IMG/VR virus record: IMGVR_UViG_2548876943_000007
Source of the DNA: a virus
Taxonomy: Duplodnaviria > Heunggongvirae > Uroviricota > Caudoviricetes
Length of the DNA: 5,337 bases
Reading direction: 5' to 3' (one strand)
In this document: positions 29 through 5,285 of the stretch, in pieces
Numbering within the stretch: position 1 is the stretch's first letter
How the letters are laid out: the number at the start of each line of letters is the position of its first letter
Translations under genes and position numbers: made by a program
Notes under the pieces: model-generated
What the model was told of the DNA's origin: nothing
The model's input: only the letters and a program-made list of their open reading frames with translations
Database searches by the model: none

Positions 29-228
29 ATCTCACCTCAAATAAGTGGTTTGCTGCGAAAGTAAATATGCTTAAGTTACCTGTTATTTATCCCACCAAGT
101 TCCGTATCTATCTATCCAGTTACACCAATCATCGACACTCCATTTTGTTGTGTCGCATTTTGGCAACTGGCATGAATATCTACCTTCTTTGTAAAGTCGG
201 CGTTTGACTTTCTTGAGCATGGCTCACC

Positions 229-534
229 TCAATCGTAATAAGCTGGAATTGATTTTCCGCGTTGCTTCTGGCGGCCTGAGCAGGTCACCCCCATTTCACT
301 GCGTGGTTTGCGGTAGTAAATACGGTTCTGTTTACGCTCGACTTCTTCTGCCTTCTTGCAGCGAAGGCTTCCGAGTGATGCTGCTTTATCTGCTCTGACG
401 CAACCAGAGAGCTTTAGCGCAATTTTTCGCGCCAGTCGCTGCTCTTGCATTGCCTGTTCACGTTGAGCCTGTCTGCGTGATCTGCGGCGATTTCTGGCGT
501 TATCGTCAGCCAGATATGTAATGACTACTGTCAT
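229..534 (-). CDS. N: Antitermination protein N-like (101 aa)
   Basis: ORF track 229..534 (-). N-terminal arginine-rich motif (NARNRRRSRRQAQREQ) resembles the boxB-binding ARM of lambda N. C-terminal YYRKPRSEMGVTCSGRQKQRGKSIPA resembles the lambda N C-terminus (WYSKPGERGITCSGRQKIKGKSIPLI) as recalled from memory. GGAGG lies 5 nt upstream of the ATG (complement of 537-541). Sits downstream of nutL and pL as in lambda. Confidence 0.85.
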   Translation of the reverse strand: MTVVITYLADDNARNRRRSRRQAQREQAMQEQRLARKIALKLSGCVRADKAASLGSLRCKKAEEVERKQNRIYYRKPRSEMGVTCSGRQKQRGKSIPAYYD

Positions 535-845
535 GTTGACCTCCGATGAAACAACTTTGGAATTTTTTTATTACAAAGTGGTTTCCTTCCCCGCCAATTA
601 GACGGGGATGGAAGAGCATTTATGAGCCTTTATGGACTCTGCTCGATCAGTTCTATTTAATTAATCTCTCAATTGAATGTAAGTATTCACATAAATCCTC
701 CTACCTCTTGTGCAGCTTTCTTGAATATGGTGGCGGCTGCATAACGCCTATGGAATTGACTTTGGCGGTGACGCGCCGGGTGCTTATCTTCCGGTTGCCG
801 TCGTGCAGCTGCACTTCACGTCACCCCAAAGCCAACTACTCTTTG

Positions 846-889
846 GTTCCCGCATTTCGGCGGGACAATCCCATCAATGTTAAAGAACC
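846..889 (-). promoter_or_regulatory. nutL site: boxA (complement of 878-889, GGTTCTTTAACA) and boxB hairpin (complement of 848-865, TCCCGC-CGAAAT-GCGGGA)
   Basis: The 18-nt boxB hairpin on the minus strand is identical to the boxB hairpin found on the plus strand downstream of cro (2545-2562). boxA resembles the CGCTCTTTAACA consensus. boxA precedes boxB by about 12 nt. The site lies between the predicted pL and N. Confidence 0.8.
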
Positions 890-934: not shown

Positions 935-1022
935 AGAATACTGTAGGTATTTTATTGTGCAAATACCCAAGGTATTTATTTTTGATGAAATAATGATAAG
1001 CAAATGAATACAAAGGATATTT
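935..1022 (-). promoter_or_regulatory. OL/pL region: operators OL-a (936-952, GAATACTGTAGGTATTT), OL-b (961-977, AAATACCCAAGGTATTT), possible OL-c (1006-1022, GAATACAAAGGATATTT); candidate pL -35 TTTGCA (complement of 958-963) and -10 TATTCT (complement of 935-940)
   Basis: Imperfect palindromes of the form AATAC-N5-GTATT recur here and in the cI-cro intergenic region. OL-b closely matches OR-a (AAATACCCTGAGTATTG) and OL-a matches OR-b (GAATACCTGTAGTATTC). Promoter hexamers with a 17-bp spacer overlap the operators and point leftward toward nutL and N. Confidence 0.7.
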
Positions 1023-1107
1023 ATTTTTTCGGTGTCTGCTTGTTCAGTGCTTTTTATGCGGGATATGTGAAGTGGATCCCGATAGCTATTGCTGCCGGGA
1101 TTATAGG

Positions 1108-1476
1108 TTAGTCAGCGAAGGTTAAGACGAGAATTACCTTAATGATGTCTGCTACAACAGACACGGCCATAGATAAACCAAAGACGATCCAAGCCACAGT
1201 GATGTCTTCACTACCATCGTATAGAGTTCCGTAATCACTGGTGTAAGGCGTAAATGTCGCGCCTTGATACAATAGGTATAAGCTTGATCCATAGAGGATA
1301 AATGCAGATATCCCTTGTATTGCTATGATCACCAGAATCATGAAACGAGCTGATCTATGCGCCCAAGCCTGGCTTATTTTTTCTGATAGAGATTTCGCAA
1401 TAAAAGCATGCGCTAAGCCGTAAATTGTCGAGATTGCCAACATCCCAAAAAAGCTTGCTATAGCGGTTCCAACCAT
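1108..1476 (-). CDS. Small integral membrane protein (122 aa, about 3 predicted TM helices), co-oriented with and immediately downstream of cI; candidate lysogen-expressed exclusion or defence protein
   Basis: ORF track 1108..1476 (-). Three long hydrophobic stretches (about residues 2-27, 45-70, 93-119) flank an acidic and aromatic loop (TPYTSDYGTLYDGSEDIT). RBS AAGGGGG lies about 7 nt upstream of the ATG. Only 18 bp separate the cI stop from this start, which implies co-transcription from pRM. It occupies the slot between cI and pL that lambda uses for rexA-rexB. No sequence family recognised. Confidence 0.7.
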   Translation of the reverse strand: MVGTAIASFFGMLAISTIYGLAHAFIAKSLSEKISQAWAHRSARFMILVIIAIQGISAFILYGSSLYLLYQGATFTPYTSDYGTLYDGSEDITVAWIVFGLSMAVSVVADIIKVILVLTFAD

Positions 1477-1494
1477 AAGCGCCCCCTTGCGTGA

Positions 1495-2211
1495 TCAAAC
1501 CAGCCTTAGTTTTGTCTCAATTGCAACGCCTATAATCTTGCAGTTTCCATTGATTGGCACGAGAGGCCATGCAGGGTTAAGTCCCTTGAGGTATTTATTT
1601 CCGCCGTCGATTATCAGCTTCTTGAATGTTGCTTCGTTAGAGTCAGAAAGTTTTGCTATGACCAAGCTGCCGTTGATCGCCTCCCTTCCGGTATCGAAAA
1701 GAACGAATGTTCCCTCTGGAATGCTTAACCCAACCGGTGCCGTCATTGAATCACCTTCCACTTTAAGCCAGAACGCATTACCTTGAATATGCGCGTCAGA
1801 CTCAAGCCAAACATCTATGTCTTTAATGGTGTATGGTTCGCATGCTTCACACCACGAGCCAGCCTGGATACTGCTTAACACCGGATACCTCTTTCCTGCT
1901 CTGTATTCCCCTGCATACCTTACGTTGGCATCGCTCTTAAGGCTTTCTGCCTGTTCTGCAACCTTGGCAGCAATTGACTGGCTAAAATCAGCAATTGAGA
2001 CTTGCAACAAACGTGCAAAACCAGATGCGACCTCAACGTTTAGCGCGTTTCTGCCATTAAGATAATGCCCTACCGCTCCTTGGGTGATACCCAGTTCATC
2101 AGCGATTGAGTATTGGGTTATTCCCAATTCTTTCTTTTTTGACTCATACAAAGCCTTAAGCCGCTTAGCGTCTTCGAGCTGTTCTGTCGTCAGTGATTTT
2201 TTATTTTCCAT
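1495..2211 (-). CDS. cI: CI-type phage repressor (238 aa): N-terminal HTH plus C-terminal LexA-like S24 autopeptidase domain
   Basis: ORF track 1495..2211 (-). HTH segment ITQYSIADELGITQGAVGHYLNG. C-terminal region RYPVLSSIQAGSW...AFWLKVEGDSMTAP...ATFKKLI resembles lambda cI (Ala-Gly cleavage site, catalytic Ser in GDSM, Lys in FKKL) as recalled from memory. Divergent from cro across an operator-rich intergenic region. No Shine-Dalgarno precedes the ATG. Confidence 0.95.
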   Translation of the reverse strand: MENKKSLTTEQLEDAKRLKALYESKKKELGITQYSIADELGITQGAVGHYLNGRNALNVEVASGFARLLQVSIADFSQSIAAKVAEQAESLKSDANVRYAGEYRAGKRYPVLSSIQAGSWCEACEPYTIKDIDVWLESDAHIQGNAFWLKVEGDSMTAPVGLSIPEGTFVLFDTGREAINGSLVIAKLSDSNEATFKKLIIDGGNKYLKGLNPAWPLVPINGNCKIIGVAIETKLRLV

Positions 2212-2295
2212 AGCTTAATTCTAATAGCTAAGGTACTTAAACTAAAAATACCCTGAGTATTGATTGCTTTGAATACCTGTAGTATTCTTTGTTCA
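2212..2295. promoter_or_regulatory. OR switch region: operators OR-c (2223-2237, AATAGCTAAGGTACT, degenerate), OR-a (2246-2262), OR-b (2271-2287); candidate pR -35 TTGATT (2260-2265) and -10 TATTCT (2283-2288); candidate pRM -10 TAGAAT (complement of 2218-2223)
   Basis: Three AATAC-N5-GTATT-type imperfect palindromes spaced about 24-25 bp centre to centre between the divergent cI and cro starts. Promoter-like hexamers overlap the operators in both directions. The pRM -10 sits 6 nt from the cI ATG, implying a leaderless cI mRNA. Confidence 0.7.
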
Positions 2296-2317: not shown

Positions 2318-2512
2318 ATGATTCGAATGACACTTGCCGATTACGCCAAAATCCATGGACAGGCTAAAGCAGCCAGTGACTTTGGTGTAATCCAGTGCGC
2401 TATCAGCAAGGCCATTCTGGCAGGCCGTAACATTATGGTTACGGTAAAGCCTGATGGCAGTGTGATTGGAGAGGAAGTTCGTCCTTTCCCAAGCAACAAG
2501 AAAAACAAATAG
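2318..2512 (+). CDS. cro: Cro-like repressor (64 aa from ATG 2318; the ORF track begins at an upstream in-frame GTG at 2312)
   Basis: Translation [64 protein letters not shown] closely resembles lambda Cro ([59 protein letters not shown]) as recalled from memory. GGAG at 2306-2309 lies 8 nt before the ATG at 2318. Divergent from cI. Confidence 0.9.
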
Positions 2513-2518
2513 TAACAC

Positions 2519-2563
2519 CGCTCTTTAACAGTCATGGTCCTCATTCCCGCCGAAATGCGGGAA
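2519..2563 (+). promoter_or_regulatory. nutR site: boxA CGCTCTTTAACA (2519-2530) and boxB hairpin TTCCCGC-CGAAAT-GCGGGAA (2544-2563)
   Basis: boxA matches the consensus. A perfect 7-bp stem with a 6-nt loop follows 13 nt downstream. The same hairpin occurs in inverted orientation at nutL. Location between cro and cII matches lambda nutR. Confidence 0.85.
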
Positions 2564-2600: not shown

Positions 2601-2620
2601 AGTTAAGGAAATACTTACAT

Positions 2621-2899
2621 ATGCAACTTACAAGTACTCGCAAGAAAGCGAATGCAATTACAAGCAACATCCTGAATCGAATTGCTGTACGTGGTCAGCG
2701 AAAGGTTGCCGACGCGTTAGGGATTAATGAATCGCAAATTTCGCGATGGAAAGACAGCTTCATCCCCAAAATGGGAATGCTTCTTGCTGTTCTTGAATGG
2801 GGTGTTGAAGACGAGGAGTTGGCGGAACTGGCTAAGAAAGTAGCCAGAATGCTGACAAAAGAAAAAGCCCCGAAGAACGGCGAATTCTTCGAGGCCTGA
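2621..2899 (+). CDS. cII: CII-like transcriptional activator (92 aa)
   Basis: ORF track 2621..2899 (+). Segment ESQISRWKDSFIPKMGMLLAVLEWGVEDEELAELAKKVARMLT closely resembles lambda CII (KSQISRWKRDWIPKFSMLLAVLEWGVVDDDMARLARQVAAILT) as recalled from memory. AAGGA lies upstream of the ATG. Position after cro and nutR. Confidence 0.9.
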   Translation: MQLTSTRKKANAITSNILNRIAVRGQRKVADALGINESQISRWKDSFIPKMGMLLAVLEWGVEDEELAELAKKVARMLTKEKAPKNGEFFEA

Positions 2900-2933
2900 T
2901 GTAGAAAGACTGGATCAATCCACAGGAGTAATT

Positions 2934-3095
2934 ATGACAAAACGTCGTAAGAAATACCAGGAAAAAGAAGAGATTCGACACCCTGATTCACCTGAGGGAT
3001 TAGTGGTAGCCGCAGCAAATAACAGGGCGTTCGCAGAGCGCCTTGTTGGTGTTTACAGACTAGCCAAAGCAGGAGTGAAACATGGGCGTCGTTAA
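2934..3095 (+). CDS. Small basic hypothetical protein (53 aa) between cII and O, overlapping the O start by 14 nt
   Basis: ATG at 2934 preceded by AGGAG (2924-2928) at 5-nt spacing. Translation [53 protein letters not shown], stop TAA at 3093-3095. Absent from the ORF track only because it is shorter than the track's length cutoff. No family recognised. Confidence 0.5.
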   Translation: MTKRRKKYQEKEEIRHPDSPEGLVVAAANNRAFAERLVGVYRLAKAGVKHGRR

Positions 3096-3912
3096 GTTAG
3101 CTGATTACAGGCCTCAACTGGAGGTCGTGGAGCATCGCGTGGCAGAACTCGAAGATGGCTACACTCGGACTGCAAACACACTGTTAGAAGCCGCCATGCT
3201 TTCTGGACTTACTCTACATCAGTTACTGATTGTTATGGCTGTGTGGCGCAAGACATACGGTTACAACAAAAAAATAGATTGGATCGGAAACGAACAGTTC
3301 GCTGAACTCACTGGCATGGCACCAACCAAATGTTCTACCGCCAAAAACGAGCTTATCAGAATGGGAGTTCTCATTCAGGTGGGGCGTCAAGTTGGTATGA
3401 ATACAAACATTTCAGAGTGGAAAACGAAAGTTAACGGATTTGGTAAAACATTTACCAAATCGGTAAAACAAACCTTCACTAAATCGGTAAAAAGCAATTT
3501 ACCGAATCAGTCAAACACAAAAGACAATATACAAAAGACAATAAATACAAATACCCCCTTACCCCCTAACGGGGGCGGCGATGGGCAGGTTAAACCTGAA
3601 CGTCGCAAGGCAGAACGAATCGACTACGAATCCTTCCTGAACGCCTACAACGCCGAAGTCGGTGACAGACTGCCACACGCTGTTGCGGTCAACGAGAAAC
3701 GCAAACGCCGCCTGAAGAAAATCATCCCGCAACTGAAAACGCCAAATGTGGACGGTTTCAGAGCGTATGTCAGGGCGTTTGTGCATCAGGCCAAACCGTT
3801 TTACTTCGGAGACAACGACACGGGCTGGACGGCTGATTTTGATTACCTGCTGAGGGAAGACTCGTTAACGGGAGTTCGGGAAGGGAAGTTTGCAGACAGG
3901 GGGATTGCATGA
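3082..3912 (+). CDS. O: Replication initiator, lambda O-like (276 aa), with the origin embedded in the coding sequence
   Basis: ORF track 3082..3912 (+). N-terminal region [15 protein letters not shown]...[45 protein letters not shown]...NISEW resembles the lambda O origin-binding domain as recalled from memory. A central low-complexity linker ([47 protein letters not shown]) is encoded by the iteron and AT-rich DNA. The stop overlaps the helicase start (ATGA at 3909-3912). Confidence 0.9.
3439..3580. repeat. Candidate origin of replication: dyad iterons (3439-3459 TTTGGTAAA-ACA-TTTACCAAA; 3484-3505 TCGGTAAA-AAGCAA-TTTACCGA; GGTAAAA repeated at 3442, 3462, 3485), an AT-rich tract with tandem CAAAAGACAATA (3508-3553), then a GC-rich CCCCC...GGGGG element (3554-3580)
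   Basis: Directly visible repeated and inverted GGTAAA/TTTACC motifs inside the O-like gene, followed by an A-rich region and a GC-rich dyad. This is the same layout as lambda ori (iterons, AT-rich region, palindrome) inside the O gene. Confidence 0.8.
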
Positions 3913-5285
3913 GACAGGATATCGAAGCGAGCGTTATCGGTGGCCTGCTGATTGGTGGATTAACTCCAACCGCCAGTGACGTTCTGGCAACGCTTGAGCC
4001 GGAAGCGTTTTCAATTCCGCTCTACAGGAAAGCCTTCGAGGTTATCCGCAAGCAGGCGCGAAACAGAAACCTAATCGACGCGCTGATGGTTGCCGAGGCG
4101 TGCGGAGAGGAGCATTTCACGTCAATCCTGATGACCAGCAAAAACTGCCCGAGTGCCGCAAACCTGAAGGGATATGCCGGAATGGTCGCGGATAACTATC
4201 ACCGCCGTCTGGTGCTGGAAATCATGGATGAAATGCGTGAACCAATTCAGAGCGGAACCATCGACGCATCGAGTCAGGCGATGGACGAGCTTGTAAAGCG
4301 TCTTTCAGCCATCAGAAAGCCCCGTGACGAGGTTAAACCTGTACGGTTAGGGGAAATCATCACCGACTACACTGACACGCTTGACAGGCGTCTGAGGAAC
4401 GGAGAAGAGTCAGATACCCTGAAGACCGGAATCGAAGAACTTGACGCCATCACCGGAGGGATGAACGCAGAAGACCTGGTGATTATCGCCGCTCGTCCTG
4501 GTATGGGGAAAACCGAACTGGCGCTGAAGATTGCCGAAGGTGTTGCAAGCCGCGTTATTCCTGGTTCTGACGTCAGGCGCGGAGTGTTGATTTTCTCGAT
4601 GGAAATGAGCGCATTGCAGATTGCAGAGCGAAGCATTGCCAACGCCGGGAGGATGTCGGTTAGCGTGCTACGAAATCCTGCATCGATGGATGACGAAGGC
4701 TGGGCACGTGTTGCTAACGGCATGAGTCAGCTTGCAGATTTGGATGTATGGGTAGTCGATGCCTCGCGGTTATCGGTAGAAGAAATTCGCTCAATCGCAG
4801 AGCGGCACAAACAGGAAAATCCAAACCTGTCACTCATCATGGCGGATTATCTTGGCCTGATTGAGAAGCCGAAAGCAGACCGCAACGACCTCGCAATTGC
4901 TCACATCTCAGGAAGCCTTAAGGCGATGGCGAAAGACCTGAAAACGCCAGTTATCTCCCTGAGTCAGCTTTCGCGCGATGTTGAGAAGCGACCAAACAAA
5001 CGCCCGACAAACGCAGATTTGCGTGATTCAGGAAGCATTGAACAGGACGCAGACTCAATCATCATGCTCTATCGGGAAGCGGTATATGACGAGAACAGTA
5101 GCGCCGCACCATTTGCTGAAATCATTGTGACGAAAAACCGTTTTGGCTCGCTTGGTACGGTTTACCAGCGGTTCTGCAACGGACACTTTGTTGCATGTGA
5201 CCAGGATGAAGCCAGACAGATTTGCACAGCATCAAATGCACCTGCTGCGCGTGGCAGACGATATGCACAAGGGGCTGACGTATGA
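3909..5285 (+). CDS. Replicative DNA helicase, DnaB family (458 aa; P22 gene 12-like)
   Basis: ORF track 3909..5285 (+). Walker [15 protein letters not shown], Walker B-like [10 protein letters not shown], and [39 protein letters not shown] matching the DnaB motifs (SQLNR...[17 protein letters not shown]) as recalled from memory. Translationally coupled to the O-like gene. Confidence 0.95.

Follow-up and report, generated by a model that had tools for sequence, protein, structure and literature searches.

Genes that share an operon with the repressor of a prophage are made in every lysogenic cell, and the best studied of them, RexAB and BstA, are anti-phage systems. Which gene fills this position in the DNA analysed here, and what might its product do for the lysogen? 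The DNA is a 5,337-nt stretch from a tailed phage (IMG/VR record IMGVR_UViG_2548876943_000007), referred to in the following as the window. A preliminary description, made from the letters alone, had pointed to a small membrane protein gene downstream of cI and had offered two options for its product: an exclusion factor that blocks injection, or a membrane-depolarizing abortive-infection (Abi) effector. The gene is hkaS, which follows cI in the repressor operon of imm-HK620-type lambdoid phages. Below we describe its operon, its family and its inheritance, and weigh the functions that these allow.

Organization of the immunity region

The window is a lambdoid early and immunity region, in which the following features were located:

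83–220, minus strand: DUF5484 ORF of 45 aa, Cys/Trp-rich, directly 3′ of N (PF17583, E = 2.6e-12; phrog_1871)
229–534, minus strand: N-like antiterminator gene
Between the N-like gene and OL: long pL leader with a boxB-like hairpin
938–950, 963–975 and ~1009–1021, minus strand: operators OL1, OL2 and OL3, overlapping pL and bounding the immunity block on the left
1075–1100, minus strand: candidate 3′ end or terminator hairpin, AUCCCGGCAGCAAUAGCUAUCGGGAU (dG −13.7, z −3.9), with no U-tract
1108–1476, minus strand: hkaS, 122 aa, encoding a predicted three-TM inner-membrane protein of the HK620 HkaS family, phrog_6534
1477–1494, minus strand: cI–hkaS spacer of 18 nt, TCACGCAAGGGGGCGCTT, including the ribosome binding site (RBS) AAGGGGG
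1495–2211, minus strand: first gene in the operon, cI repressor of imm-HK620 type, 238 aa with HTH_3 and Peptidase_S24 domains
2248–2260 and 2273–2285, plus strand: OR operators, located by motif, with pR and pRM (HK620 has OR1–3 and pR annotated)
2318–2512, plus strand: cro
2621–2899: cII
3082–3912: O-type initiator gene
3909–5285: DnaB-type helicase gene

The operators share the motif ATACYNNNRGTAT, which occurs at two sites in OL and two in OR, and the window holds five matches where 0.28 would be expected. The position of OL3 was taken from the HK620 annotation and alignment; in HK620, the terminator tIMM is annotated as overlapping OL3. The operator matches place hkaS between cI and OL/pL, which is where the preliminary description had put it. 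The fifth operator-like site, ATACAATAGGTAT, lies at 1267–1279 inside hkaS and has one mismatch to the OL/OR pattern. We rejected it as an operator: it encodes the invariant residues Y67-L-L-Y70, and in other lineages the palindrome is lost at synonymous or flanking positions. The site is probably a by-product of coding.

Several minor features of the region were also considered. An identical 19-nt hairpin, TCCCGCCGAAATGCGGGAA, is found at 846–864 (minus strand) past pL and at 2544–2562 (plus strand) past cro. The two copies are the nutL and nutR boxB elements expected for an N-like antiterminator, and HK620 has nutL and nutR annotated equivalently. On the plus strand at 1004–1111, a hydrophobic ORF of 35 aa, MNTKDIYFFGVCLFSAFYAGYVKWIPIAIAAGIIG, converges with hkaS, overlaps its stop codon and has its own ATG within OL3; it is absent from the divergent Salmonella and metagenomic loci, gave no family matches and is likely spurious. 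Another plus-strand ORF, of 153 aa (546–1007), runs antisense to the entire pL leader, nutL and the OL region; no family match backs it, and it can almost certainly be dismissed as a gene. A basic ORF of 53 aa (2934–3095, plus strand) lies between cII and O and overlaps the O start codon; a small ORF, hkaW (DUF2740), is present between cII and O in HK620 and its relatives. A search of Rfam found no RNA family within the window. An anti-phage sRNA, svsR, has been described “at the 3′ end of the cI gene” in the lambdoid prophage NC-SV of E. coli NC101 (GCA_029542525.1; PMC12803456). The published phenotype there is one of anti-adsorption. If NC-SV were of the imm-HK620 type, svsR would border directly on hkaS (the cI 3′ end corresponds to window 1495–1575).

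Arrangement of the cI–hkaS operon

The cI gene ends with a TGA codon at 1495–1497, and after 18 nt, as previously described, the ATG of hkaS follows at 1476–1474 on the same strand, preceded by an RBS that ends 5 nt 5′ of it. Every lineage compared has kept an RBS (AAGGA or AAGGGGG) inside a spacer of 17–20 nt. A spacer of this size is too short to hold a separate promoter or terminator, implying that hkaS is co-transcribed with cI. The conserved spacer and RBS thus speak for the earlier view of a rexAB-equivalent locus that would be transcribed together with the repressor. In lambda, pRM drives the repressor operon in lysogens, and pRE drives it during establishment. By analogy, pRM would be the promoter of the cI–hkaS operon in the lysogen, and pRE would serve while lysogeny is being established; the HK620 record annotates pRE, the pRM-side operators and the tIMM terminator at equivalent positions. 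A sigma-70 promoter scan of positions 500–2400 returned zero sites, and since it missed even pR and pL, it says nothing about a promoter internal to hkaS.

The hairpin at 1075–1100 begins 8 nt 3′ of the hkaS stop codon. A stable hairpin (z −2.3 to −5.4) was found about 10–25 nt 3′ of the stop codon in all lineages, with differing sequences, and in the Buttiauxella relative it has a U-tract and the form of a canonical terminator. From this arrangement, cI and hkaS appear to form a bicistron that terminates ahead of OL. The GC content of hkaS, 42.3%, is the lowest in the region (45.7% for cI, 52.6% for the helicase gene), which is a moron-like signature.

HkaS forms an orphan family

The window protein is 99.2% identical in amino acid sequence to HkaS of phage HK620 (AAK28867.1), encoded at the same place between cI and OL3. 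It also matched the profile of phrog_6534, of unknown function, over its entire length (E = 2.4e-79, residues 1–122 on profile positions 1–122). These are the same gene, and membership supplies a name, not a mechanism. The ORF is thus a well-defined hypothetical protein found anew, annotated since 2001, when it was entered in the HK620 record (AF335538) with the product “unknown”. The preliminary description had called the protein uncharacterised, which is right in that no function has been assigned to it, although the gene already had a name and a PHROG. A literature search by name and accession (NP_112052, AAK28867) found no publication on hkaS.

By tblastn, hkaS was detected in 16 phage records at 91–100% identity. 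Carriers other than HK620 include HK630, HK140, mEpX2, HZ41, HF4s, vB_EcoP-611R6, phi296, phi367 and two Stx2c-converting phages, and they span podovirus and siphovirus morphotypes. The gene was present in 146 of 5426 complete E. coli genomes (~2.7%), O111:H8 EHEC strains among them; all of these copies are chromosomal and all are labelled “hypothetical protein”. IMG/VR contained at least 115 additional copies. At a larger scale the family is small: an index of 5.8 billion proteins had only 12 HkaS clusters, all from Enterobacterales, and a profile HMM run against 1.84 billion cluster representatives gave 2 matches, one being the family itself and the other a 44-aa fragment.

Searches of Pfam, NCBIfam and PADLOC with HkaS returned nothing meaningful, the best match being Cation_ATPase_C with an E value of 0.0035, well below the cutoff. 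At E ≤ 10, none of the families in PADLOC-DB v2, which include Rex, BstA and PD-T4/T7/Lambda, matched the protein. BLASTP comparisons with RexA, RexB, SieB, Hex, Sf6 gp38, HK620 HkaP and other proteins from the same slot showed no similarity, and a structure search with the HkaS model found no analogue except generic helix bundles. The protein had not been recognised as RexB, SieB or a member of any named family when it was first described, with homology and structure searches named as the check; the profile, HMM and BLASTP searches bore this out, and beyond the family itself only the helix bundles came up. HkaS is an orphan family of its own, resembling RexB only in position and in its character as a small polytopic membrane protein.

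hkaS is maintained by selection and changes faster than cI

Ninety copies of hkaS, representing 40 nucleotide and 27 protein alleles, were extracted from the loci. All 90 were intact, and each was exactly 366 nt long. For the pair formed by E. coli and the Hafnia-type relative, in which synonymous sites are unsaturated (dS 0.69), dN/dS was 0.13 for hkaS and 0.03 for cI; across comparisons, the hkaS ratio was 0.13–0.20. Intact copies of uniform length, together with a dN/dS of 0.13, show that hkaS is not a chance reading frame. It is a real gene maintained by selection. A spurious or decaying, functionless ORF might have been suspected from the labels “hypothetical” and “unknown” that the gene carries everywhere, and from the lack of homologues beyond its own family. 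That reading is effectively refuted by the conservation data, which add to the intact copies and low dN/dS a conserved RBS, 36 invariant positions across family members down to 52% identity and a confident fold prediction, and we give it next to no credence.

Amino-acid change in hkaS ran at about four times that in cI, with dN values of 0.093 versus 0.022, and of 0.33 versus 0.083 and 0.42 versus 0.076 for more distant pairs. The most variable region was the predicted periplasmic loop, at 42% mean pairwise identity versus 55–64% elsewhere. We considered positive selection in this acidic loop and rejected it: no region had a dN/dS above 1, and in the distant pairs the synonymous sites are saturated. 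The fast change of hkaS is a pattern compatible with an arms race, and it could also simply mean that HkaS, as is typical for small membrane proteins, is weakly constrained.

One part of the gene departs from the rest. In the comparison of E. coli with the Hafnia-type lineage, codons 94–122 (window 1108–1195) had a synonymous divergence of 0.20 versus 0.65–1.09 elsewhere in hkaS, and the hairpin following hkaS is common to the two lineages. The low divergence of the 3′ third and the shared hairpin suggest that a recombination breakpoint between these lineages may lie within hkaS.

hkaS is inherited with the immunity block

In all 89 loci with upstream sequence, a cI gene of the imm-HK620 lineage ends 17–20 nt before the hkaS ATG. 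Conversely, hkaS is carried by 16 of 16 phage records with a cI at least 99% identical, and in E. coli the counts of the two genes are equal, at 147 places each in 146 genomes. We never found hkaS outside the imm-HK620 prophage immunity module. The association extends to divergent relatives, with the following identities:

Hafnia-type relative: hkaS 83%, cI 95%
Salmonella relative: hkaS 61%, cI 86%
Metagenomic lineage: hkaS 52%, cI 88%
Buttiauxella relative: hkaS 56%, cI 60%

Recombination breakpoints were mapped in 81 loci by tracing how far an uninterrupted stretch with at least 90% homology extends on either side of hkaS. The left edge fell at window 755–846, just past pL/OL, in 64 of the 81 loci and farther left in 17, and the right edge fell in cII or beyond in 79; no breakpoint was found between OL and OR in any of the 81. 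The immunity block is inherited whole because the repressor must match both its operators, and the perfect linkage of hkaS to cI follows from its place inside an OL–cI–OR block that recombination does not split. hkaS need not, therefore, depend functionally on cI. In all 89 loci, hkaS stood alone between cI and OL, with no partner or sensor gene beside it.

Other immunity types carry other genes in this slot, or none, as follows (cI identities are to the window cI):

Lambda: RexA and RexB
434, Sf6 and Huey: Hex, 134 aa, “repressor protection protein” in 434; cI 52%
Erwinia phage 49: soluble protein of 200 aa; cI 65%
Midgardsormr38: P63C-domain protein; cI 58%
Fostie: soluble protein of 97 aa; cI 62%
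mEp213: nothing; cI 51%
P22: nothing

The cI-to-OL slot is called a mosaic hotspot in a passage of PMC8585504 that cites Degnan 2007. Close relatives of the window cI, at 58–71% identity, occur without hkaS. The idea that the slot holds variable cargo thus holds across immunity types and fails within imm-HK620, where no variation in content was seen (16/16, 146/146 and 89/89): hkaS travels as a fixed component of the imm-HK620 module and is not exchangeable cargo within it. Nor is the slot reserved for defence genes, the 434 Hex gene being labelled a repressor-protection protein. The Hex-type gene of 134 aa (2609–3013) has the product “repressor protection protein” in 434 (L014) and “PagP lipid A acylation protein” in Huey (L017), of which the PagP label looks like an error of annotation transfer.

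The strict co-inheritance and co-divergence of hkaS with cI and cro, down to 60% cI identity, might also reflect a role in regulating the phage itself, in which HkaS would tune the lysis–lysogeny decision or prophage stability, for example via FtsH/HflKC, which degrades cII. There are analogies for such a role in 434 Hex, the gene of the same slot with the repressor-protection label, and in the way lambda RexB and cIII affect proteases of the host. Expression from pRE would provide HkaS at establishment, when cII stability counts, and a conserved cytoplasmic amphipathic helix is predicted beside the membrane. However, the position of hkaS inside the OL–OR block fully accounts for the linkage, the cI relatives at 58–71% identity manage without hkaS, and the slot is empty in P22 and mEp213. 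HkaS moreover has no similarity to Hex, and nothing cIII-like was found in Pfam. We consider a regulatory role distinctly improbable.

Predicted structure and membrane topology of HkaS

Kyte–Doolittle hydropathy analysis of HkaS gave three peaks, at residues 1–19, 45–63 and 103–121. An AlphaFold2 model based on an alignment of 8 family sequences (pLDDT 89.3, pTM 0.76) had long helices at residues 2–29, 41–74 and 89–121, a short helix at 31–38 and, within the acidic loop, a small beta-hairpin. The protein was divided accordingly:

Residues ~2–29: TM1, AlphaFold2 prediction
Residues 28–44: predicted basic cytoplasmic loop with the short amphipathic helix 31–38
Residues 41–74: TM2, AlphaFold2 prediction
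Residues ~75–93: predicted acidic, Tyr-rich periplasmic loop with the beta-hairpin
Residues 89–121: TM3, with invariant D110 and K113

Three hydrophobic helices and an acidic, Tyr-rich loop had already been read from the translation in the preliminary description; hydropathy and the model agree on the helices, and the loop, TPYTSDYGTLYDGSEDIT, corresponds to residues 76–93. In five of five lineages, the net charge was +3 to +5 for loop 1 and −1 to −4 for loop 2. By the positive-inside rule, this pattern predicts an N-out/C-in protein with the variable loop in the periplasm, and HkaS would reside in the inner membrane in this orientation.

The invariant positions form clusters in the first loop (K33, I34, W38, H40, A43, R44 and F45), at the end of TM2 (Y67, L68, L69, Y70, T74 and F75) and in TM3 (D110, K113, I115, L116, V117, L118 and T119). 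Invariant polar or charged residues within the TM helices are Q54, S106, D110 and K113. The protein ends in ...ILVLTFAD, with no basic or charged tail, and has neither an enzymatic or sensor domain nor a large cytoplasmic domain.

Comparison with known systems

Lambda RexB occupies the same slot as HkaS, 3′ of cI and upstream of OL within the immunity block. Both are small polytopic inner-membrane proteins, HkaS by prediction, and expression of HkaS would likewise be from pRM. However, the same hydropathy scan showed four hydrophobic segments in RexB and three in HkaS, and RexB pairs with RexA, whereas no hkaS locus has a RexA-like sensor. BLASTP of HkaS against RexB gave no alignment at E ≤ 100, and no RexB match was found in Pfam, PHROG or PADLOC. 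Class I holins have three TM segments in an N-out/C-in topology. This is the only feature they have in common with HkaS, which matches no holin in Pfam or PHROG, lacks the charged C-terminal tail and is encoded in an immunity operon rather than a lysis cassette.

These likenesses bear on the Abi option of the preliminary description. In the form considered here, HkaS would act without a partner: its oligomer would be a latent pore or channel, RexB- or holin-like, that superinfection triggers, leading to depolarization and death. The rexB slot and the predicted holin-type topology would suit such an effector, and the invariant Q54, S106, D110 and K113 in the TM helices could line an oligomeric pore. 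On the other hand, the 89 loci contained no RexA-like sensor or other partner, the protein has no similarity to RexB (four TM segments to its three) or to holins, and it ends in ...LTFAD instead of the charged tail typical of holins. Constitutive expression from pRM would also demand a tight trigger, for which HkaS has no domain. Of the two options, the RexB-style Abi effector is made the less likely one by the absence of an adjacent RexA-like partner, and we regard it as improbable.

Among other proteins encoded near cI, Hex (Sf6 gp38) resembles HkaS in genetic setting: its gene comes directly after cI, which it overlaps, belongs with a cI family ~52% identical and is fixed within its own immunity type. 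Hex has 134 aa, carries a signal-like segment at its N-terminus and lacks a TM core, unlike the three-TM HkaS, and BLASTP of HkaS against 434 Hex gave E = 48 over 8 residues. SieB showed no similarity (best E = 27), and sieB of P22 and lambda lies beyond N, whereas hkaS lies between cI and OL.

T4 Imm and HK97 gp15 are inner-membrane proteins that block the entry of phage genomes. P22 SieA has been described as an inner-membrane superinfection-exclusion protein (PMC10883804). All three are small, polytopic and act alone, with no enzymatic domain, and HkaS may be alike; it has no sequence or family relation to them in Pfam, PHROGs or PADLOC. The sieA gene is at another locus and has its own promoter (PMC10883804), whereas hkaS is in the repressor operon. 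BstA of prophage BTP1 is encoded 3′ of the prophage repressor, presumably with a promoter common to both (PMC8585504). As an Abi protein, BstA is large, cytoplasmic and associated with DNA, and it has a cognate aba element; HkaS has no similarity to BstA and no match to it in PADLOC.

Possible functions of HkaS

A defence role for HkaS, most plausibly exclusion at the inner membrane, would be consistent with its position, topology and fast-evolving loop. We tentatively propose that HkaS is a lysogenic-conversion protein that acts at the inner membrane to shield the lysogen against superinfection by heteroimmune phages, a proposal that we hold to be a genuine possibility, short of probable. HkaS would be made with the repressor in the lysogen, from pRM, and also from pRE during establishment, and would insert into the inner membrane in an N-out/C-in orientation, its variable loop facing the periplasm. 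There, the fast-evolving loop would meet the ejection machinery of the incoming phage, and HkaS would hinder the genome from crossing the cytoplasmic membrane, as do P22 SieA, T4 Imm and HK97 gp15. Exclusion is favoured by the lone gene, the absence of a sensor domain, the predicted periplasmic location of the fast-evolving loop and a slot known for anti-phage cargo. With no partner, no sensor and no large cytoplasmic domain, a passive membrane block is favoured over a sensor–effector Abi system, and a sensor-triggered channel is a less likely mechanism.

The distribution of conserved residues points elsewhere. Conservation is strongest in the cytoplasmic loop (K33, I34, W38, H40, R44 and F45) and in TM3, which argues for a conserved partner, possibly a cytoplasmic or host one, rather than a periplasmic phage target. 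HkaS might accordingly be a non-defence lysogenic-conversion protein that modulates host physiology through, for example, a transporter, sensor kinase or protease, as do MgrB, AcrZ and MgtS. The best-conserved parts, the cytoplasmic amphipathic loop and TM3 with its buried D110 and K113, are what a conserved host partner would yield. The lack of an enzymatic or sensor domain and of any defence-family match in PADLOC would also suit a modulator, as would the occurrence of the family in several Enterobacterales genera whose envelope machinery is conserved. The family is, however, very narrow (the 12 clusters in 5.8 billion proteins and 2 matches in 1.84 billion representatives given above) and confined to one prophage immunity module, whereas generally useful modulators tend to spread, and HkaS changes fast relative to cI. 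We see this role as unlikely, if deserving of serious consideration. The probability left over by the roles discussed here belongs to functions outside those listed.

A broader form of the exclusion proposal is that HkaS founds a new family of single-protein prophage defences. A 122-aa, three-TM protein in the repressor operon would exclude or abort heteroimmune phages alone, with the hypervariable periplasmic loop setting specificity and the intramembrane Asp/Lys pair as its core, making HkaS a minimal, sensor-less counterpart of Rex. We consider this possible and, on present evidence, doubtful.

Biological significance

HkaS is an ordinary hypothetical protein that holds no surprise in itself and is a good candidate for experiments. 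Its carriers include Stx2c-converting phages as well as the easily handled model phages HK620, HK630, HK140 and mEpX2, and the predicted structure is confident and very simple. A phenotype, should one exist, could be traced to a few invariant residues. If HkaS excludes phages, it would be a new minimal defence module acting at the membrane, which could affect the host range of phages used in therapy. If it is not defensive, it would be a tractable membrane protein of non-defence lysogenic conversion.
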